Below are positions 47,246-64,000 of a stretch of DNA of 64,000 nucleotides, in pieces (the first letter of the stretch is position 1; each line of letters begins with the position of its first letter). The position numbers and the translations under genes were made by a program. Below the pieces are notes generated by a model, which was not told the origin of the DNA, made no database searches, and worked only from the letters and a program-made list of their open reading frames with translations. The DNA comes from Octopus vulgaris (Eukaryota): the NCBI GenBank assembly GCA_951406725.2, contig OX597817.1, positions 124,496,001 to 124,560,000 on the forward strand, read 5' to 3'.

Positions 47246-50200
47246 ATTTTCAGTAAAATTATTCAACAGACATATTAACGAAAAGTTATCATTCGATATA
47301 TTCATCAAACATTTTCTTCAAACATAGTCATCGGACATTTTCATCGAAAATTTTAGTCACATATATTCAACAAATATCAAAAATTTCAAAAAAAAGTTTT
47401 CATCAAAAATATTCACCAAATATTTTCCTGAAACATTTTCATCAAACATTTTAATCAAACATTTTCATCCAACAATTTTATCAAACATTTTCATCAAAAA
47501 TTTTCATCAAACATTTTCAACAAACACATTCAACAAACATTTTCATCAGACATTTTCATCAAACATTTACATCAAACATTTTCAACGAACATTTTCATCA
47601 AATATATTCAACAAACATCAAATATTTCAGCAAAAGTTTTCATCGAATATATTCATCAAATATTTTCCTGAAACATTTTCATTTTAATCAGACATTTTCA
47701 CTAGATATTTTCCTCAAACATTTTCATCAGACATTTTCATCAGACATTATCATCAAACATTTTCATCAAACATTTTATCAAACATACTCATCACACATTT
47801 TCATCAGACATTTTCATCAAACATTTACATCAAATATATTCAAACATTTTCGTCAAACATTTTCACCAAACATCTTCATCAAACAATTTTATCAAACATT
47901 TTCATAAGAAATTTTCATCAAACATTTTCAACAAACACATTCAAAAGACATTTTCATCAAACATTTTCATCAAACATTTACATCAAACATTTTCAACGAA
48001 CATTTTCATCAAATATATTCAACATACATCAAAAATTTCAGCAAAAGTTTTCATCAAATATTTTCCTGAAACATTTTCATTTTAATCAGACATTTTCACT
48101 AGTTATTTTCCTCAAACATTTTCATCAAACATTTTATCAAACATACTCATCAGACATTTTCATCAGACATTTTCATCAAATATATTCATCAAACATTTTC
48201 ATCAAACATTTTCATCAGACATTTTCATCAAACAATTTCATCAGACATTTTCATCAGACATTTTCATAAGACATTTTCATCAAATATTTTATCAAACGTA
48301 TTCATCAAACATTTGCATCAAACATTTTCATCAAACATTTTCATCAAACATTTACATAAAACATTTTCATAAACATTTTCATGGAATATATTCAACAAAC
48401 AACAAAAATTGCAGCAAATATTTTTAATATATTCATCAAATATTTTCCTGAAACATTTTCATCAAACATTTTCATCAGACATTTTATCAGATATTTTCAT
48501 CAAACATTTTCATCAAACATTTTCATCAGACATTTTCATCAAACATTTTCAACAAACATTTTATCAAACATACTCATCAGACATTTTCATCAGACATTTT
48601 CATAAAACATCATCAAATATTTTCATGAGATATTTTCATCAAACATTTTTGAATATTTGAAAATGTCTGATGAAAATGTTTGATGAAAAATCTCATGAAA
48701 ATGTTTGATGAAAATGTTTTAAGTAAATGTTTGATGAAAATGTTCTATGTAAATGTTTGATGAAAATGTTTGAGGAAACTGTTTGATTAAAATGATAGAT
48801 GAAAATATTTGATGAATATGTTGAAAATGTCTGATGAAAATGTTTGATGAAAAATCTCATGAAAATAATTGATGAAAATGTTTGAGGAAAATGTTTGATG
48901 AAAATGTCTGATGAAATTGCTTGATGAAAAGTTCTGATGAAAATCTCTGATGAGTATGTTTGCTAAAATATGTGATGAAAATGTTTGATGAAAATGAAAA
49001 TATTTCTGGAAAATACTTGATGAATATATTCGATGAAAACTTCTGCTGAAATTTTTATGTATGTTGAATATATTTGATGAATATATTTGTTGAATATATT
49101 CGTTGAAAATGTTTTAAGAAAACGTCAGATGAAAATGTCTGATGAAAAAGTTTGATGAAAATGTTTGATGAAAATGATTATTGAAAATGTTTGATGAAAA
49201 TGTCTGATTAAATTGTCTTATGAAAATGTTTGATGGAAATGTTTCAGGAAAATATTTGATGAAATATATCTGTTGAAAATTTTGCTGCAATTTTAGATGT
49301 TTGTTGAATATATTTCATGAAACTTTTGATGAAAATGTTTGATGAAAATGTCTGCTGAAAATGTTTCGTGAAAATGTTTGTTGAAAATGTTTGATGAAAA
49401 TGTCTGTTGAAAATGTTTGAAGAAAATGTTTAAAGAAAATGTTTAATGAAAATATTTGTTTAAAATGTTTGATGAAAATGTCTGATGAAAATGTTTGCTG
49501 AAAATATTTCATGAAAATGTCTGATTAACATGTTTGATGGAAATATTTCATGAAAATGTTTCATGAAAATGTTTCATGAAAATGTTTGTTGAAAATGTCT
49601 GATGTAAATGTCTGATGATTGTTGATGAACGTGTATGATGAAAATGTTTGATGAAAATATTTGATGCAGATGTCTGAAGAAAATATTTGATGAAAATGTT
49701 TGATGAAAATTTTTGATGAACATGTTTGATGAAAATGCATGATAAATATGTCTGATGGAAATGTCTGATGAAAATCTTAGATGAAAATGTTTGATGAACG
49801 TGTATGATGAGAATGTTTCATGAAAATGTCTGATGAAAATGTTTGTTGAATGTGTCTGATGAAAATGTCTGAAGAATATGTATGATAAAATGTTTGATGA
49901 AAATGTCTGTTAAAAATGTTTGATGAAAATGTCTGATGAAATTATTTGATGAAAATGCATGATAAATATGTCTGATGGAAATGTCGGATGAAAATCTTAG
50001 ATGAAAATGTTTGATGAACGTGTATGATGAGAATGTTTCATGAAAATGTCTGATGAAAATGTCTGAAGAATATGTATGATAAAATGTTTGATCAAAATGT
50101 TTGATGAAATTGTTCGTTGAAAATGTTTGATGAAAATGTCTGATGAAATTTTCTGATGAAAATGTTTGATGGAAATGTCTGATGAATATGTTTGATAAAA

Positions 50201-53200
50201 TGTATAATGAAGATGTTTTATGAAAATGTCTGATGAAAATGTCTGATGAAAATGTTTGATAAAAATATTTGATGAACGTGTGTGATGAAAATGTTTGATG
50301 AAAACGTTTTGTGAAAATGTCTGATGAAAATTTCTGATGTAAATAATTGATGAAAATATCTGATTAACATGTTTGATGAAAATGCTTGATAATATCTGAT
50401 GGAAATGTCGGATGAAAATCTTAGACGAAAATGTTTGATGAACGTGTATGATGAAACTATTTTATGAAATGTCTGATGAAAATGTTTCATGAAGATGTCT
50501 GATGAATATGAATTATAAAATGTTTGATGAAAATGTTTGATGAAAATGTATGAAGAAAATGTTTTAGGAAAATGCCTAATGAAAATTTCTGATGAAAATG
50601 TCTGATGAAAATGTATGAAGAAAATGTTTGATGTAAATATTGAGGAGAATATCTAGTGAAATTGTCTGATGAAAATGAAAAGTTTTCAAGAAAATATTTG
50701 ATGAATATATCCGATGAAAACTTTTGCCCAAAAGTTTGATGTATGTTGAATTTATTTAATGAAAATATTCGTTGAAAATGTTTGATTAAAATGTTTGATG
50801 AAAATGTTTGATGGAAACGTATGGTGAAAATGTCTGATGAAAATGTTTAATGAAAATGTCTCATGAAAAAATTTGATGAAAATGTTTGATGAAAATGTCT
50901 AATGAAAATGTTTGCTGATAATGTTTGATGAAAATGTCTGATGTTTGAATAAAATATTTGATGAAAATCTTTCATGAAAATGTTTTATGAAAATGTTTGT
51001 TGAAAATGTCTGATGTAAATGTCTGATGAGAATCTTGGATGAAAATGTTTGATGAACGTGTGTGATGAAAATGTTTGATGAAAATGTCTCTTGCAAATGT
51101 TTGATGAAAATGTATGATGAAAATGTTTGATCAAAATATTTGATGAATATGTTTCATGAAAATGATTAATGAAAATGTTTGGTGAAAATGTCTGATGAAA
51201 ATGTTTCTTGAAAAAATTTGATGAAAATGTCTGATGAAAATGTCTGACGAATATGTATAATAAAATGTGTGATGAAAATGTTTGATGAAAACGTCTGATG
51301 AAAATGTCTGTTGAAGATGTTTGATGAAAATGTTAGATGAAAATGTCTGATGAAAATGTTTGAAAAAATATTTGATAAAAATGTCTGATGAAAATGTGTA
51401 ATGAAAATGTTTGATGAAAATGTTTGTTGAAAATGTTTGAAGAAAGTGTCTAAGGAAATGTTTGATGAAAATGATGATAATGTCTGATGAAAATTTCTGA
51501 TGTAAATGTTTGATAAAAATATCTGATTAACATGTATGATGAAAATGTTTGATGATAATGTCTGATGGAAATGTCAGATGACAATCCTAGATGTGAATGT
51601 TTGATGAACCTGTATGATGAAAATGTTTGATGAATATGTCTCATGAAAATGTTTGTTGAAAAAGTTTGATGAAAATGTTTGATGAAAATGTCTGATGAAA
51701 ATATCCGATTAACATGTTTGATTGAAATGCTAGAGTATAATGTATGATGGAAATGACTGATGAAAATCTTAGATGAAAATGTTTGAATACAATGTCTGAT
51801 GAAAATGTTTGTTGAATGTGTTTGATGAAAATGTCTGATGAATATGTATGATAAAATGTTTGATGAAAATGTTTGATGAAAATGTTTTATCAAAATGTCC
51901 GATGAAAATGTTTGATGAAATTGTTTGATGAAAATGCCTGATGAAAATGTTTTATCAAAATGTTTGATGAAAATATTTGATGAACGTGTATGATGAAGAT
52001 GCTTGATGATAATGTCTGATGGAAAGGTCTGATGAAAATCTTAGATGAAAATTTTTGATGAACGTATATGATGAAGATATTTTATGAAAATGTCTGATGA
52101 AAATGTTTGTTGAAAATGTTTCATGAAAATGTCTGATGAAAATGTTTGATGAAAATGTCTGATGAAAATGTATGATAAAATGTTTGATGAAAATGTCTAA
52201 TGAATATTTCTGATGAAAATGTTTGATGAAAATGTTTGAGGAAAATGTCTAGTGAAATTGTTTGATGAAAATGAAAATGTTTCATGAAAATATTTGATGA
52301 ATATATTCGATGAAAACTTTTGCCGAAAATTTTGATGTATGTTGAATTTATTTAATGAAAGTGTTCGTTGAAAAGGTTTGATGAAAATGTTTGATTCAAA
52401 CGTATTGTGAAAATGACTGATGAAAATGTTTAAAGAATATGTCTCATGAAAAAATTTGATGAAAAGGCCTAATCAAAATGTTTGCTGAAAATGTCTGATT
52501 AAAATGTTTGAATAAAATATATGAAAATCTTTCATGAAAATGTTTCATGAAAATGTTTGATGAAAATGTCTGATGTAAATGTCAGATGAGAATCTTGGAA
52601 TGTTTGATGAACGTGTGTGATGAAAATGTTTGATGAAAATGTCTCATGCAAATGTCTGCAGAAAATGTATGATGAAAATGTTTGATCAAAATATTTGATG
52701 AATATGTTTGATGAAAATGATTGATGAAAATGTTTGGTGAAAATGTCTGATGAAAATTTCAGATGTAAATGTTTGAGGAAAATATATGATTAACATGTTT
52801 GATGAAAATACTTGATGATAATGTCTGATCGAAATGTCTGATGAAAATCAAAGATGAAAATGTTTGATGAACGTGTATGATGAGAATGTTTTACGAAAAT
52901 GTCTGATGTAATTGTTTGTTGAAAATTTGTAATGAAAATGTCTGATGAAAATGTCTGACGAATATGTATGATAAAATGTTAGATGAATATGTCTGATGAA
53001 TGTTTGAAAAAATATTTGATGAAAATGTCTGATGAAAATGTCTGATGAAAATGTTTGATGAAAATGTTTGATGAAAATGTCTGATGAAATTGTTTGATGA
53101 AAATGTTTGAGGTAATTATTTTATGAAAATGATTAATGAAAATGTTTGAAGAAAATGTTTGAAGAAAATATTTGAGGAAAATGTGTAGTGAAATTTTCTA

Positions 53201-56200
53201 ATGAAAATGAAAAGGGTTCACGAATATATTCGATGAAAACATATGCCGAAAATCATGATAAATGTTAAATTTATTTGATGAAAATGTTCGTTGAAAATGT
53301 TTAATAAAAATGTTTCATGAAAACGTATGGTGAAAAATGTCTGCTGAAAATGTTTAATGAAAATGTCTCATGAAAAAATTTGATGAAAATGTTTGATGAA
53401 AATTTCTAATGAAAATGTTTGCTGATAATGTTTGATGAAAATGTCTGATGTTTGAATAAAATATTTGATGAAACTGTTTCATGAAAATGTTTCATGAAAA
53501 TGTTTGTTGAAAATGTCTGATGTAAATGTCTGATGAGAATCTTGGATGAAAATGTTCGATAAACGTGTGTGATGAAAATGTTTGATGAAAATGTCTGAGG
53601 CAAATGTCTGAAGAAAATGTATGTTGAAAATTTCTGATGTAAATGTTTGATGAAAATATCTGATTAACTTGTATGATGAAAATGTCTGATGAAAATGTCT
53701 GATGAAAATGTTTGTTGAAAATGTTTGATGAAAATGTTTGATTAAAGTGTCTGATGAAAATGTCTGATGAAAATGTCTGATGAAAATACCTGATTAACAT
53801 GTTTGATTAAAATGCTTGATGATAATGTCTGATGGAAATGTTTAATAAAATGTGTGATGAAAATGTCTAATGGAAATTTCTGATGAAAATGTCTTGTGAA
53901 AATGTTTGAGGAAACTGTCTAGCGAAATTGTCTGATGAAATTGAAAATGTTTCACAAAAATATTTGATGAATATATTAGATGAAAACATTTGCTGAAAAT
54001 TTTGATGTATGTTGAATTTATTTGATGAAAATTTTCGTTGGAAATGTTTCATGAAAATGTTTCATGAAAATGTTTGTTGAAACTGTCTGATGAGAATCTT
54101 GGATGAAAATGTTTGATGAACGTGTGTGATGAAAATGTTTGATGAAAATGTCTGATGCAAACGTCTGAAGAAATTGTCTGATGAAAATGTCTGATGAAAA
54201 TGTGTGTTGAAATTGTTTGAACAAAATATTTGATGAAAATGTTTGATGAAAATGTTTGTTAAAATTGTTTGATATTTGATGTTTGATGAAAATGTCTGAT
54301 GAAATTGTTTGATGAAAATGTTTGATGAAAATGTCTAATGAAATTGTTTGATGAAAATGTCTGATGAAAATGTTTGATGAAAATATCTGATGAAAACGTC
54401 TGGTGAATATGTTTGATAAAATGTCTGATGAAAATATCTGATGAAAGCGTCTGATGAAATTGTTTGATGAAAATGTCTGATGAAAATGTTTGATGAAAAT
54501 GTCTGATGAACTTGTTTGATGAAATTCTTTGATTAAATTGTTTGATAATTTCTGATTAAAATGTTTGAATAAAATATTTGGTGAAAATCTTTCATGAAAA
54601 TGTTTTATTAAAATGTTTGTTGAAAATGTCTGAATCTTGGATGAAAATTTTTGAGGAACGTGTGTGATGAAAATGTTTGATGAAAATGTCTGAGGCAAAT
54701 GTCTCAAGAAAATGTATGATGAAAATTTCTGATGTAAATATTTGATGAAAATATCTGATTAACATGTATGATGAAAATGTTTGATGAAAATGTTTGATTA
54801 AAGTGTCTGATTAAAATGTCTGATGAAAATAACTGATTAACATGTTTGATTAAAATGCTTGATGATAATGTCTGATGGAAATGTTTAATAAAATGTGTGA
54901 TGAAAATGTCTAAGGGAAATTTCTGATGAAAATGACTGGTGAAAATGTTTGAGAAAAATATCTAGCGAAATTGTCTGATGAAATTGAAAATGTTTCACAT
55001 AAATATTTGATGAATATATTCGATGAAAACATTTGCCGAAAATTTTGATGTATGTTGAATTTATTTGATGAAAATGTTCGTTGAAAATGTTTGATGAAAA
55101 TGATTTATGAAAATGTTTGTTGAAAATGTCTGATGAGAATCTTGGATGAAAATGTTTGAAGAACGTATGTGATGAAAATGTTTGATGAAAATGTCTGATG
55201 TAAACGTCTGAAGAAAATGTCTGATGAAAATGTCTCATGAAAATGTGCGATGAAATTGTTTGAACAAAATATTTGATGAAAATGTTTGATGAAATTGTTT
55301 GTTGAAATTGTTTGATATTTGATGTTTGATGAAAATGTCTGATGAAATTGTTTGATGAAAATGTCTAATGAAATTGATGATGAAAATGTCTGATGAAAAT
55401 GTTTGGTGAAAATATCTGATGAAAACGTCTGGTGAATATGTTTGATAAAATGTTTGATGAAAATATCTGATGAAAACGTCTGGTGAATATGTTTGATGAA
55501 AATGTCTGATGAAAATGTTTGATGAAAATGTCTGATGAACATGTTTGATGAAATTCTTTGATTAAATTGTTTGATAATTTCTGATTAAAATATTTGATGA
55601 AAATTTTACATGAAAATGTTTTATGAAAATGTTTGTTGAAAATGTCTGAATCTTGGATGAAAATGTTTGATGAACGTGTGTGATGAAAATGTTTGATGAA
55701 AATGTCTGCTGAAATTGTTTGATGAAAATGTCTGAAGAAATTGATAAAAATGTCTGATGAAAATGTCTGATGAAATTGTTTGTTGAAAATGTTTGATGAA
55801 AATGTCTGATGAAATTGTTTCATGAAAATGTTTGATGAAAATGTCTGATGTTTGATTAAATTGTTTGATGATGTCTGATTAAAATGTTTGAATAAAATAT
55901 TTGATGAAGATCTTTCATGAAAATGTTTCATGAAAATGTTTGTGGAACATGTCTCATGTAAATGTCTGCTGAGAATCTTGGATGAAAATGTTTGATGAAC
56001 GTGTGTGATGAAAATGTTTGATGAAATTGTTTGATGAAAATGTTTGGTGTTTGATTTTTGATGAAAATGTCTGATGAAAATGTTTGATGAAATTGTTTGT
56101 TGAAATTGTTTGATGATGTCTGATTAAAATGTTTGAATAAAATATTTGATGAAAATCTTTCATGAAAATGTTTCAGGAAAATGTTTGTTGAAAATGTCTG

Positions 56201-56865
56201 ATAAGAATCTTGGATGAAAATGTTTGATGAACGTGTGTGATGAAAATGTTTGATGAAAATGTCTGAGGCAAATGTCTGAAGAAAATTTTTGATGAATATG
56301 TTTGATGAAAATGATTGATGAAAATGTTTGTTGAAAATGTCTGATGAAAATTTCTGATGTAAATGTTTGATGAAAATATCTGATTAACATGTTTGATGAA
56401 AATGTCTGATGAAAATACCTGAGTAACATGTTTGATTAAAATGTTTGATGATAATGTCTGATGGAAATGTTTAATAAAATGTGTGATGAAAATGTCTAAT
56501 GGAAATTTCTGATGCAAATGTCTGGTGAAAATGTCTCTTGCAAATGTTTGGAGAAAATGTATGATGAAAATGTTTGATCAAAATTATTGATGAATATGTT
56601 TGATGAAAATGTCAGATGAAATTGTTTGATTAAATTGTTTGATGATGTCTGATTAAAATGTTTGAATAAAATATTTGATGAAGATCTTTCATGAAAATAA
56701 TAGTTATCGCCATACTAATATGGCATTCTTATAAAAATAAGAATAAAGCTGTCTGCTTATTAGCTCCATGAGGCCATCGCCTTAAGTTAGCTATTTGATA
56801 CACAAACTGTATCCGTATAACCTTCGAATAAGGGAGGTCAGTCGCTCCACACTACTTGACCGACA

Positions 56866-56907
56866 GCTACAGATGCGTTTCGGGGTATTGCCCCTTTTCA
56901 ATGTAGT
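56866..56907 (-). ncRNA. Hammerhead ribozyme copy 1 (U3:A8)
   Basis: CUACA UUGAAAA GGGG-CAAUA-CCCC GAAA CGCA UC / UGUAG: perfect helix II and one mismatch in helix III. Confidence 0.75.
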
Positions 56908-57227
56908 GTAGTCAGACCAGTAGGTGTCGCTTCTGACAATCTCTGTTCGAAGGTTTTATTTACCTAGTTTCGGTGGAATACATCCACTTGTTTTCAATAA
57001 TAGAGATATTAAAATTACTAAGTCTCTCTAAAAGAGAACACGGCAGCGTTCCCGGAAAATAATAGTTATCGCCATACTAATATGGCATTCTAATAAAAAT
57101 AAGAATAAAGCTGTCCGCTTATTAGCTCCATGAGGCCATCGCCTTAAGTTAGCTATTTGATACACAAACTGTATCCATATGACCTTCGAACAAGGGAGGT
57201 CAGTCGCTCCACACTACTTGACCGACA

Positions 57228-57270
57228 GCTACAGACGCTGTTTCGGGGTATTGCTCCTTTTCAATGTAGC
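57228..57270 (-). ncRNA. Hammerhead ribozyme copy 2 (U3:A8)
   Basis: GCUACA UUGAAAA GGAG-CAAUA-CCCC GAAA CAGCG UC / UGUAGC, with a 1-nt insertion in helix III. Confidence 0.72.
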
Positions 57271-57590
57271 GTAGTCAGACCAGTAGGTGTCACTTCTGAC
57301 AATCTCTGTTCGAAGGTTTTATTTACCTAGTTTCGGTGGAATACATCCACTTGTTTTCAATAATAGAGATATTAAAATTACTAAGTCTCTCTAAAAGAGA
57401 ACACGGCAGCGTTCCCGGAAAATAATAGTTATCGCCATACTAATATGGCATTCTAATAAAAATAAGAATAAAGCTGTCCGCTTATTAGCTCCATGAGGCC
57501 ATCGCCTTAAGTTAGCTATTTGATACACAAACTGTATTCATATGACCTTCGAACAAGGGAGGTCAGTCGCTCCACACTACTTGACCGACA

Positions 57591-57632
57591 GCTACAGACG
57601 CGTTTCGGGGTATTGCTCCTTTTCAATGTAGC
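57591..57632 (-). ncRNA. Hammerhead ribozyme copy 3 (U3:A8)
   Basis: GCUACA UUGAAAA GGAG-CAAUA-CCCC GAAA CGCG UC / UGUAGC, with palindromic helix III ACGCGU and a GUC site. Confidence 0.8.
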
Positions 57633-60600
57633 GTAGTCAGACCAGTAGGTGTCACTTCTGACAATCTCTGTTCGAAGGTTTTATTTACCTAGTTTCGGTG
57701 GAATACATACACGTGTTTTCTTGTAGCTGTCGGTCAAGTAGTGTGGAGCGACTGACCTAGTATTTTCCGGGAACGCTGCAGTGTTCTCTTTTACAGAGAC
57801 TTAGTAATTTTAATATTTCTATTATTTCATGAAAATGTTTCATGAAAATGTTTGTGGAACATGTCTCATGTAAATGTCTGCAGAGAATCTTGGATGAAAA
57901 TGTTTGATGAACGTGTGTGATGAAAATGTTTGATGAAAATGTCTGATGAAACTATTTGATGAATATGTCTGATGAAAATGTCTGATGAAAATGTTTGGTG
58001 TTTGATTTTTGATGAAAATGTCTGATGAAAATGTTTGATGAAATTGTTTGATGAAATTGTTTGATTAATGTCTGATTAAAATGTTTGAATAAAATATTTG
58101 ATGAAAATCTTTCATGAAAATGTTTCATGAAAATGTTTGTTGAAAATGTCTGATGTAAATGTCTGAGAATCTTGGATGAAAATGTTTGATGAACGTGTGA
58201 GATGAAAATGTTTAATGAAAACGTCTGATGCAAATGTCTGATGAAAATGTATGATGAAAATATTTGATCAAAATTGTTGATGAATATATTTGATGAAAAT
58301 GATTGATGAAAATGTTTGGTGAAAATGTCTGATGAAAATTTCTGATGTAAATGTTTGATGAAATTATGTGATTAAGATGTTTGATGAAAATACTTGATGA
58401 TAATGTCTGATGGAAATGTCTGATGAAAATCTTAGATGAAAATGTTTGATGAACGTGTATGATGAAAATGATTTATGAAAATGTCTGATGAAAATGTTTG
58501 TTGAAAATGTTTGATGAAAATGTCTGATGAAAATGTTTCTTGAAAACGTTTGATGAAAACGTCTGATGAAAATTTGTGATGAAAATGTTTGATGAAAATG
58601 TTTCATGAAAATGTCTGATGAAAATATTTGATGAAGATGTTTGATGAAAATGTTTGTTAAAAATGTTTGTTGAAATTGTTTGAGGAAATTGTTTGAGGAA
58701 AATGCTTGATGTAAATGTCTGAGGGAAATGTCTGATGAAAATCTTAGATTGAAATGTTTGATGAACGTGTATGATGAAAATATTTGATCAAAATTTTTGA
58801 TGAATATGTTTGATGAAAATGATTGATGAAAATGTTTGTTGAAAATGTCTGATGAAAATTTCTGATGTAAATGTTTGATGAAAATATCTGATTAACATGT
58901 TTGATGAAAATGCTTGATGATAATGTCTGATGAAAATCTCAGATGTCTGATGAAATTGTTTGCTGAAAATGTTTGATGGAAATGTTTGATGAAAATGTCT
59001 GATGTAATTGTTTGATGAAAATGTCTGATGAAAATGTATGATAGAATGTTTGATGAAAAGGTTTGGTGAAAATGTCTGATGAACATGTTTGATAAAATGA
59101 TTGATGAAAATGTTCGTTGAAAATGTTTTACGAAAATGTTCAAGGTAATTCCTTGATGAAAATTTTGATGAAAATATCTGATTGACATGTTTGATGAAAA
59201 TGTCTGATGTTAATATTTGATGTTTGATGTTTGATGAAAATGTCTGATGAAATTGTTTGATGAAAATGTTTGATGAAAATGTTTGATGAAAATGTCTGAT
59301 GAATATGTTTCATAAAATGTTTGATGAAAATGTTTGTTGAAAATATTTTATGAAAATGTTCGAGGAAATTCTTTGATGAAAATGTCTGATGAAATTGTTT
59401 GATGAAAATGTCTGATGTTAATATTTGATGTTTGATGTTTGATGAAAATGTCTGATGAAAATGTTTGATGAAAATGTTTGATGATGAATATGTTTGATGA
59501 AAATGTCTGATGAAATCGTTTGATGAAAATGTTTGATGAAAATGTTTGAAAATGTCGGATGAATATGTTTGATGAAAATGTGATGATGAAAATGTTTGAA
59601 AATGTCGGATGAATATGTTTGATAAAATGTCTGATGAAAATGTTTGATGAACACGTTTGATGAATTTGTCTGATGAAATTGTTTGATAGAAATTTCTTAT
59701 GAAAATGTCTGATGTAAATGTTTGAGTTTTGATGTTTCATGAAAATGTCTGATGTAATTGTTTGATGAAAATGTTTGATGAAATGTCTGATGAAATTGTT
59801 TGATGAAAATGTCTGGTGAAAATTTCTGATGAAAATGTGTGATGAATATGTTTGATTAAATGTCTCATGAAAATGTCTACTGAAGATGTTTGATGAAATT
59901 GTTTGATGAAAATGTCTGATGAAAATGTCTGATGAAAATGTTTGATGTTTGATGTTTAATGAAAATATGTGATGAAATTGTTTGATCATAATAATGTTTG
60001 CTGAAATTGTTTGATATTTGAAGTTTGATGAAAATGTCTGATGAAATTGTTTGATGAAAATATTTGAAGAAAATTTCTGATGAAATTGTTTAATGAAAAT
60101 GTCTAAAGAAAATGTCTCATGAAAATGTTTGATTAAAATGTCTGATGAATATATCTGATGAAAATTTCTGATGAAATTGTTTGATGAACATGTCTGATGA
60201 AAATGTTTGATGAAAATGTCGGATGAAAATGTTTAATGAAAATGTCTGATGTAATTGTTTGATGAAATTGTTTGATGATGTCTAATGAAAATGTTTGATG
60301 AAAATGTTTGATGGAAATCTTAGATGAAAATCTTAGATGAAAATGTTTGATGAACGTGTATGATGAAAATGTTTTATGAAAATGTCTCATGAAAATGTTC
60401 GTTGAAAACGTTTGATAAAATGTTTGATGAAAATGTTTGTTGAAAATGTTTTATGAAAATATTTGAGGAAATTCTTTGATGAAAATGTTTGATGAAAATA
60501 TCTGATTAACATGTTTGATGGAAATGCTTGATGATGACTGATGTCAATCTTAGATGAGAACATCTGATGAAAGTGTATGATGAAAATATCTGATGAAAAT

Positions 60601-63600
60601 GTCTTATGAAAATGTTTGATGAAAATGTTTGATGATGAAAACGTTTGATGAAAATGTCTGATGAAATTGTTTGATGAAAATGTCTGATGAAATTGTTTGA
60701 TGAAAATGTTTGATTAAAATGTTTGAAAATGTCAGATGAAAATGTCTGAGGAAAACGTTTGATGAATATGTCTCATTAGACATATTCATCAAACGTTTGA
60801 TAAAATGTCTGATGAAAATGTCTGATGTAAATGTTTGAGGTTTGATGTTTGATGAAAATGTCTGATGAAATTGTTTGATGAAAGTGTTTGATGAAAATGT
60901 CTGTTGAAATTGTTTGATGAAAATGTCTGGTGAAAATGTCTGATGAAAATGTCCGATGAATATGTTTGATAAAATGTCTGATGAAAAGGTCTAATGAAGA
61001 TGTCTGATGAAATTGATGAAAATGTCTGATGAAAATGGTTGATGTTTGATGTTTAATGAAAATGTCTGATGAATTTGTTTGATCATAATATTTGATGGAA
61101 ATGTTTGATGAAAATATTTGCAGAAATTGTTTGATGTTCGATGTTTGATGAAAATGTCTGATGAAATTGTTTGATGAAAATGTCTGATGAATATATCTGA
61201 TGAAAATGTCTGATGAATCTGTTTGATAAAATGTCTGATGAAAATGTTTCATGTTTGAAGTTTGATGAAAATTTCTGATGAAATTGTTTGATGAAAATGT
61301 CTGATGAAAATGTTTGATGAAAATGTTTGATGAAAATGTTTGATGAAATTGTTTGATGTCTAATGAAAATGTTTGATGAAAATGTCTGATGGAAATGTCT
61401 TCTGAATATCTTAGATGAAAATGTTTGATGAACTTGTATGATGAAAATGTTTTAAGAAAATATCTTATGAAAATGTTCGTTGAAAATGTTTGATGAATAT
61501 GTCCGATGAAAATATCTGATGAAAATGTTTGCTGAAAATATTTGATGAAAATGTTTGATTAAAATGTTTGATTAAAATATTTGATGAAAATGTTTGATGA
61601 AAATGTCTGATGAAAATGCCTGATGAATATGTATGATAAAATGTTTGATGAAAATGTTTGATGAAAATGTCTGATGAAAATGTTTCATGAAAATGTTTCA
61701 TGAAAATGTCTGATGAATATGTTTGATAAAATGTTTGTTGAAAATGTTTGAGCAAATTGTTTGATGAAAATGTTTGATGAAAAATGTCTGATGGAAATGT
61801 CTGCTGAAAATCTCTGATGAAAATGTCTGATGAATATGTATGGTAAAATGTTTGATGAAAATTTTTGATCAAAATGTCTGATCTAAATATTTGATGAAAA
61901 TATCTAATTAAAATATCTAAATTTTCATCAAACATTTTCATCATCAAACATTTTCATCAAACATTTTCATCAGTTATTTTCTAATGGAAATGTCTGATGA
62001 AAATCTTAGATGAAAATGTTTGATGAACGTGTATGATGTTTGAAAATGTCTGATGAAAATGTCTGATGAAAATGTCAGATGAATATGTATGATCAAATGT
62101 TTTATGGATATGTATGATAAAATGTTTGATGAAAATGTTTAATGAAAACGTCTGATGAAAATGTCTGGGGAAAATATTTGATAAAAATGTCTGATGAATA
62201 CGTTTGATAAAATATTTGATGAAAATGTTTAATGAAAATATCTGATGAAAATGTATGTTGAAAATGTTTGTTGAAAATGTTTGAGGAAATTGTTTGATGA
62301 AAATGTCTGATGATTATGTCTGATGGAAATGTCTGATGAAAATGTCTGATGAAAATGTCTGATGAATATGTATGATAAAATGTTTGATGAAAATGTTTGA
62401 TCAAAATGTCTGATGTAAATGTTTGATGAAAATATCTAATTAAAATGTCTGATGAAAATGCTTGATGATAATGTCTGATGGAAATGTCTGATGAAAATCT
62501 TAGATGAAAATGTTTGATGAACGTGTATGATGTTTGAAAATGTTTGAAAATGTTTGTTGAAAATGTTTGATGAAAATGTCTGATGAAAATGTCTGATGAA
62601 AATGTCAGATGAATATGTATGATAAAATGTTTTATAGATATGTATGATAAAATGTTTGATGAAAATGTTTAATGAAAACGTCTGTTGAAAATGTCTGGTG
62701 AAAATATTTGATAAGCATGTCTGATGAATACGTTTGATAAAATATTTGATGAAAATGTCTTATGAAAATCTCTGATGAAAATGTGTGATGAATATGTTTG
62801 ATAAAATGTTTGATGAAAATGTTTGGTGAAAATGTATAATTAACATATTTTATTAAAATGCTTTCATCAAACATTTTCATCAAAACTTTCATGAAATATA
62901 TTCAACAAACATCAAAAATATCAGCAAATATTTATTACATATATATTCATCAAATATATTCCTCCAACATTTTGATTAAACATTTTCATCAAACATTTTC
63001 AACAAACATTTTCATAAAACATTTTCATCAAACATTTCCATCAGACATTTTCATCTGACGTTTTTATCAAAAAAATTTCACCATACACGTTCATGGATCA
63101 TTTTCATCAGACAGATTCCTCAATCATTTTCATCAAACATATTTCTTGAACATTTAAGTCAAACATTTTCAAAAATTTTCATTAAACATTTTGTCAAACA
63201 TTTTCATCAAACAGTTTAATCAGACATTTCCATCAAACATTTTCATCCGACATTTTCATCAAACATTTTTATGAAACACTTTCTTCATACATATTCAACA
63301 AACATTTTCATCAATCATTTTCATCAGACGATTTTTATGAAACATTTTCATCAAACATTTCCATCAAACATATTCATCAAATGTTTTTTATTAAACAATA
63401 TTATGAGACATTTTCATCAAACATTTTCCTCAAACATTTTCATATATCTTTTTTATAAATCATTTTCATGAAACACTTTCATGAAATATTCTCATCAGAC
63501 ATTTTCATCCTACATTTTCATCTCAGATTTTCATTACAGATTCCCATCAAACATTTTCATCAAGCATTTTCTGACATTTTCATCAGATATTTTTATCAAA

Positions 63601-64000
63601 CACTTTCCTCGTACATGTTCATCAAACATTTTCATCTAAGATTTTCACCAGAAATTTTCATCAAATATTTTCATAAAACATTTTCAACAAGCTTCATCAT
63701 CAGACATGTTTTTCAAGCATTTTCATCAATCATTTTCATTAGACAGTTTAATCCAATATTTTCATGAAATATTTTCAAATATTTTCATCAAAAAATTTCA
63801 TCAGACATTTTCATCAAACATTTTCATCTGACATTTTCATCAGACATTTTCATCAAACATTTTTATCAAACTTATTCATCAGACATTTTCATCAGACAAT
63901 TTTTGTCGAACAATTTCCTCAAACATTTCCATCAAATATTTTCATCAAATATATTTAATAAACATTGTCATCAGACATTTTGATGAAACATTTTCATCAA

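Follow-up and report, generated by a model that had tools for sequence, protein, structure and literature searches.

The insertion described here lies within the window, by which we mean the whole 64,000-nucleotide stretch of Octopus vulgaris DNA that was analysed, and its target was a host array of a 13-bp satellite (TGAAAATGTTTGA) at positions 48658 to 62860 (plus strand). The 13-bp satellite itself continues over more than 16 kb (window 47301-64000), with its orientation flipping at about 48650 and about 62860, and a short inverted stretch of about 41 to 51 nt is found within it at 60752-60808. An identical 12-mer, TTTCATGAAAAT, is present at both ends of the insert, forming the left (56687-56698, plus strand) and right (57825-57836, plus strand) target-site duplications. 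Positions within the repeat unit are given below as q, i.e., the position within unit 1, with window position 56698 as q1 and a unit length of 362 bp. In these terms the last 6 nt of the left duplication also match the element (q358-q1), and the right target end shares 2 nt with it. The ribozyme RNA corresponds to the minus strand, an arm read with rising q corresponds to the cDNA, and the predicted cut falls between q175 and q174.

The insert consists of 2.82 direct units (56698-57720) followed by an inverted part. Unit 1 of this long arm (56698-57059, minus strand, 362 bp) begins at the family start site q1 and differs from the family reference copy by 6 substitutions, unit 2 (57060-57422, minus strand, 363 bp) has a 1-nt insertion in hammerhead loop III, and unit 3 (57423-57720, minus strand) is truncated at q298. 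One extra base (T, 57721) stands at the inversion junction, after which comes an inverted 37-nt piece equal to q138-174 (57722-57758, plus strand), the inner end of the second arm. The remainder is an inverted "tail" piece of 64 bp (q301-q2; 57761-57824, plus strand), the alignment of which extends to 57757-57826 with 66 of 70 positions matching. Between the two inverted pieces, about 131 to 135 nt (q3/7-q137) are absent, and the join is a 2-nt AG microhomology. Among the contigs of two unlabelled sequencing runs, none bridged the junctions of this copy, a result that carries no weight either way. Of the sequencing runs listed as containing the element, none is on record as RNA and all are contigs, which, as seen for four of the runs, carry no information on RNA ends.

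The presence of a U3:A8 hammerhead, as called in the initial annotation, was supported. In unit 3 the motif lies at 57591-57633 on the minus strand, with the GUC cut between 57597 and 57596, and the same motif places predicted cuts between 57234 and 57233 and between 56872 and 56871 in the other two units. It is made up of a stem I (GCUACA/UGUAGC), a core (UUGAAAA...GAAA), a 4-bp helix II, a palindromic helix III (ACGCGU), and the GUC cut site. When 18 copies were aligned, the core read U3 U G A N A8 A ... GAAA ... GUC, in agreement with the type I consensus (YUGANRA, GAAA, NUH), with N7 varying between A, C, and U and the rest invariant or nearly so, and helix III was palindromic in each of four forms (ACGCGU, ACAUGU, ACUAGU, and ACCGGU). 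In this set of related copies, which was picked by hand and includes five picked for a substitution at the cut site, 88.9% of cells were paired and 8 of 17 pairs had changed on both sides; the covariation score was reached by none of 500 shuffles, and slid controls gave 27-45%. An Rfam scan at the gathering threshold returned no family match for the motif. On the strength of its fold and covariation, the motif is a conserved type I U3:A8 hammerhead with three helices on the minus strand and a predicted ribozyme. A long rod (z = -5.1) has the motif at its tip, and a damaging change within the motif is now present in all three units of the window. More distant subfamilies (at loci L303, L311, L312, L314, L322, L323, L328, and L329) keep the U3:A8 core, and the sequence of their helix III varies.

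The statement that the inverted fragment begins exactly at the predicted cut also held: copy 3 ends at 57720, positions 57722-57758 are q138-174 reversed with 37 of 37 bases matching, and in RNA sense the first base of this piece is q174, the first nucleotide 3' of GUC on the minus strand. We would like to note that copy 3 ends in ...TC, that the RNA reads GUC/UGUAGC, and that, with one inserted base, the junction could sit up to 2 nt upstream of the cut.

The genome contains at least 3,161 exact matches of a 23-nt unit motif, and 1,879 first-look candidates for the unit were collected. An unselected sample was made up of all 49 loci covering the first 100 listed motif matches (contig 1, first 77.5 Mb), which gave 91 arms. 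Of these arms, 39 start at q299-303 and 37 at q359-3, together 76 of the 91 (top 12 start positions). Both target ends carry inward-pointing element sequence, one arm running from the fixed start q1 and one from the fixed start q300, and the point at which the arms meet, head to head, varies. Since 27 of the 38 head-to-head insertions in the unselected sample pair a q1 arm with a q300 arm, the inverted 64-bp piece at 57761-57824 is best seen as the family's usual q300 arm. It had been described as the missing last ~64 bp of the unit in inverted orientation; the geometry is correct, and most of it is explained by the family's fixed second start at q300. Junction microhomology is common in the family (mode 2 nt), arrays of at least 5 units occur at other loci, and the flanks of family copies are mostly (TA)n, the present copy lying within an AT-rich satellite. 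Pairs of identical insertions a few kb apart (L111, L118, L063/L065, and L081) are local duplications that copied a junction.

The present copy is a real feature of a known class with a known insertion layout. Judged by its sequence, the element fits the non-LTR retrozyme class, being composed of non-coding tandem units of 362-363 bp with one hammerhead each and dispersed with target duplication. Metazoan non-LTR retrozymes, whose proposed origin lies in Penelope-like elements (PLEs), are likewise described as tandem units without coding sequence that measure 150-450 bp and each contain one type I hammerhead, with a low GC content and larger target duplications (PMC7229834; bioRxiv 10.64898/2026.07.22.740005). 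The inverted arms and two fixed starts found here are, in contrast, not described for retrozymes in the available portions of PMC7229834 (in which "inverted" occurs 0 times) or of bioRxiv 10.64898/2026.07.22.740005. The order of the present element's parts, i.e., a partial tandem, a truncated copy in inverted orientation, and a tail at one of the ends, is the known PLE layout. In endonuclease-bearing PLEs, too, a partial tandem lies next to a truncated copy in inverse orientation, one end may have a tail, and there is a (TA)n target bias; rotifer PLE copies have 8-10-bp target duplications (PMC8557442; PMC3846280). Unlike these PLEs, the element here is without an ORF, and its tail measures about 63 nt as opposed to 30-40 in PLEs.

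Two further comparisons concern the enzyme and the ribozyme. For the anole element PAc Poseidon, the one PLE studied in vitro, both DNA strands are reported to be cut and extended, with reverse transcription starting at two internal sites that bound the tail (PMC11167929), a behaviour that the layout of the present family matches. According to the same source, the template is mainly unprocessed RNA, insertion is normal with ribozyme mutants, and none of the RNA reads has its end at the cut. PAc Poseidon is autonomous, however, and its reverse transcription starts without homology to the cut DNA (PMC11167929), whereas the present copy has the 6-nt and 2-nt matches at its target ends. The U3-A8 pair is a published PLE hammerhead variant (PMC4209133). 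The minimal hammerheads of the Schistosoma PLE Cercyon are similar to ours in their U3-A8 core covariation, palindromic helix III, and predicted dimeric action (PMC4209133); in contrast, the motif here has a 6-bp helix I and a 4-bp helix II and belongs to a tandem retrozyme unit, where it is enclosed in a long rod. With regard to possible protein-coding partners, 5 of the 213 ORFs of the sampled loci were scanned, and RVT_1 and GIY-YIG gave weak, sub-threshold matches only, in 2 of these 5 ORFs, which lie close to other copies; no autonomous partner was recognised among them. At L084:3407-4000, L112:3006-3599, and L147:2855-3601, family copies have neighbouring ORF fragments, two of the three with weak RVT_1 or GIY-YIG matches, that are possible Penelope-like remnants. 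At L077:2615-7582, two long ORFs (515 and 1,140 aa) between family copies look by eye like a LINE-type retrotransposon.

In L1 twin priming, the second target strand primes internally and produces a head-to-head inversion inside the target duplication, with an internal primer site that is variable in position and lies right next to the first cDNA's end. The insertion studied here is alike in having its inversion inside the target duplication, but both of its starts are fixed and one arm's end is not found next to the other arm's start more often than chance would allow (5 of 110 q1+q300 pairs, 7.9 expected; the present copy is outside the 110 pairs because its short arm is split). The proposal of a 5' inversion of twin-priming or template-switch type can be kept in the sense of an insertion templated by RNA, with priming from both ends of the target, and dropped in the sense of an L1-type inversion on a single RNA.

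The exact coincidence of the junction with the GUC site had been taken as indirect evidence that the ribozyme was active in vivo, with the suggestion that breakpoints be tabulated across copies for enrichment at GUC/UGUAGC. We searched genome-wide with a 24-nt degenerate anchor ending at q174, noting that exact-match patterns miss diverged copies and that ends were classed by eye. The anchor was followed by G in 1,799 places (read-through) and by another base in 35, the latter comprising 16 arm ends and 19 point substitutions. Stops at the cut site therefore make up 16 of 1,834 passes (0.87%), and about 99% of passes read through. At q175, 5 of 18 matches were arm ends.

Three control positions, q164, q143, and q217, each of which precedes an invariant G, were read in the same way as q174. 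For q164, the 51 matches read (4 of 55 were left unread) yielded 12 ends, 22 substitutions, and 10 unrelated sequences, together with 7 further ends at q161-163 that were not counted, over a denominator of about 1,965 passes estimated from the 49-locus sample. For q143, the first 30 of 87 matches contained 6 ends, which extrapolates to about 17 (8-33) in 3,165 passes. For q217, a broader pattern was dominated by a subfamily variant (137 matches) and a tighter one was used for the count, with a filter that lets through 12 of the 16 ends at q174; 6 of its 11 matches were ends, in about 1,540 passes as estimated from the 49-locus sample. The pooled control stop rate was about 0.55%, and the individual controls, at 0.4-0.6%, were all below the 0.87% of the cut site. 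The rate ratio of cut site to controls was 1.57 (95% CI 0.87-2.83, p = 0.13), or 1.48 (0.81-2.69, p = 0.23) without the index copy, and by point estimate the excess share of ends at the cut site is 25-36%. Set against a flat rate of 0.31% per base, the 16 observed ends compare with 5.7 expected (2.8-fold, P = 3e-4), and positions before G gather more apparent ends anywhere (ratio 1.5), because junction microhomology is common.

The unselected sample was read for its arm ends as well. None of its 91 arms ended within q169-178, where 2.1 ends were expected. An apparent cluster of ends at q169-177 traced back to loci that had been chosen because they contained these positions, together with a reference unit carrying a private q177 mutation, and it was gone in this sample. 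Ends do gather at q121-140 (57543-57562 in unit 3), with 16 of the 91 arms ending there (p = 2e-5, about 3.6 times background). Given that q123-133 pairs with q247-257, the interval q121-140 is where the cDNA enters the long RNA rod, just inside its 3' strand, and it is likely a stall site of the reverse transcriptase. With 16 of 1,834 passes stopping at GUC/UGUAGC as against some 0.55% at control positions, a rate ratio of about 1.6 (CI 0.9-2.8), no ends near the site in the unselected sample, and a hot spot elsewhere, the use of the junction as evidence of in vivo cleavage is not supported, though a small excess of ends at the site may exist. A recorded ribozyme cut at this junction is not established, and coincidence is the more likely explanation of the two. 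A literature search on breakpoint mapping at retrozyme cut sites, or on twin priming in Penelope, returned nothing on the point among the records listed.

We think it probable, though well short of certain, that the insertion represents an ordinary hammerhead retrozyme copy, non-coding and with a 362-bp unit, which a Penelope-like reverse transcriptase likely put in place, and that the short arm of this copy ends at the ribozyme site by coincidence. A Penelope-like enzyme would have nicked both strands of the AT-rich satellite, and from each nicked 3' end reverse transcription would have begun on a multimeric, mostly uncut RNA template, at either of two internal ATAATAG-like sites. The points at which the cDNAs halt would be scattered, with entry into the long RNA hairpin (q121-140) the most frequent, and the two cDNA ends would then be joined by repair. 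In the present copy, the short arm may have skipped or lost q3-137 (q3/7-137) at the AG microhomology, and one long-arm unit, likely unit 2, probably arose later by tandem duplication, the original arm having measured about 1.8 units. This duplication within an original 1.8-unit arm is suggested by the variants, four of which are common to units 2 and 3 and one (q308 G) to units 1 and 2. Rolling-circle copying of a single monomer circle was considered for all three units and set aside, as units 2 and 3 share variants absent from unit 1 and a later duplication fits better.

Two observations count against coincidence. The first is that the point estimate at the cut site lies above all three controls and at 2.8 times the flat average. 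The second is a further coincidence within the present copy, the long arm of which stops at q298, beside the start of the other arm, with one extra base at the junction; both features agree with a single RNA whose 5' end had been cut. In such a scheme, the template would be a linear multimer with a hammerhead-cut 5' end, and a minority of family copies would record in vivo cleavage. The q1 primer would run to the second primer at q299, and the second would run to the cut 5' end at q174 and add an untemplated base, whereupon the two would be joined. This would account for a stop exactly at the site with one extra base and for a long arm ending at q298 beside the other start, and locus L240 resembles it in that one arm ends at q2, adjacent to where the other begins, and the latter ends at q175. 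It also agrees with a rate ratio above 1 and the excess share it implies, and with the conserved fold, in which pairs have changed on both sides and helix III has stayed palindromic through four variants. However, the confidence interval of the rate ratio spans 1, arm adjacency is not enriched in the family, and at q308 the tail is unlike units 1-2. Of the 16 ends, moreover, many have 2-6 nt in common with the partner arm or with TA/CATA repeats, and this sharing sets apparent ends after CA regardless of position. The same RNA would also have to hold at least two uncut ribozymes, and the present copy's own long arm passes the cut site three times without stopping. Because the excess share by point estimate is 25-36%, we consider a cleaved template possible but on balance doubtful. 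If it did apply, about a third of the ends at GUC sites, the present one included, would be run-offs from ribozyme-cut RNA, a fossil record of low-efficiency germ-line cutting by a U3:A8 hammerhead, and the family's thousands of junctions would map both the cut and a hairpin that stalls the reverse transcriptase; we hold this fuller picture to be equally tentative.

That the junction formed after insertion, through a deletion between inverted arms, or is an assembly error in the satellite is very improbable: inverted repeats in satellite are unstable, about 131-135 nt have been lost from within the arm at a microhomology of 2 nt, and one unit was apparently duplicated later, but the perfect 12-bp target duplication, the family-typical layout, and the private differences in each unit all speak against it.

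The role of hammerheads in Penelope-type elements is presented as an open question in the available parts of PMC8557442 and PMC11167929, and if cDNA ends truly peaked at the cut, this would be rare in vivo evidence of cleavage. The data point the opposite way, as read-through of about 99% agrees with the in vitro result that uncut RNA is the main template (PMC11167929). Two useful by-products of the count are the pair of fixed start sites about 63 nt apart and the stall hot spot at the entry to the long hairpin, both of which are testable in the existing PLE assay.

The family locus L240:1380-1760 is a compact insertion made up of q300-q2 and q362-q175, approximately the stretch of RNA that runs from the cut site as far as the q300 start, and is the best second candidate for a cut template. 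At L157:1300-2823, the arms are joined via 6 nt common to both strands of hammerhead helix I. At L071:1901-2315, the meeting point of the two arms lies within the palindromic helix III, 2-4 nt away from the cut site, and the arms form a perfect fold-back.
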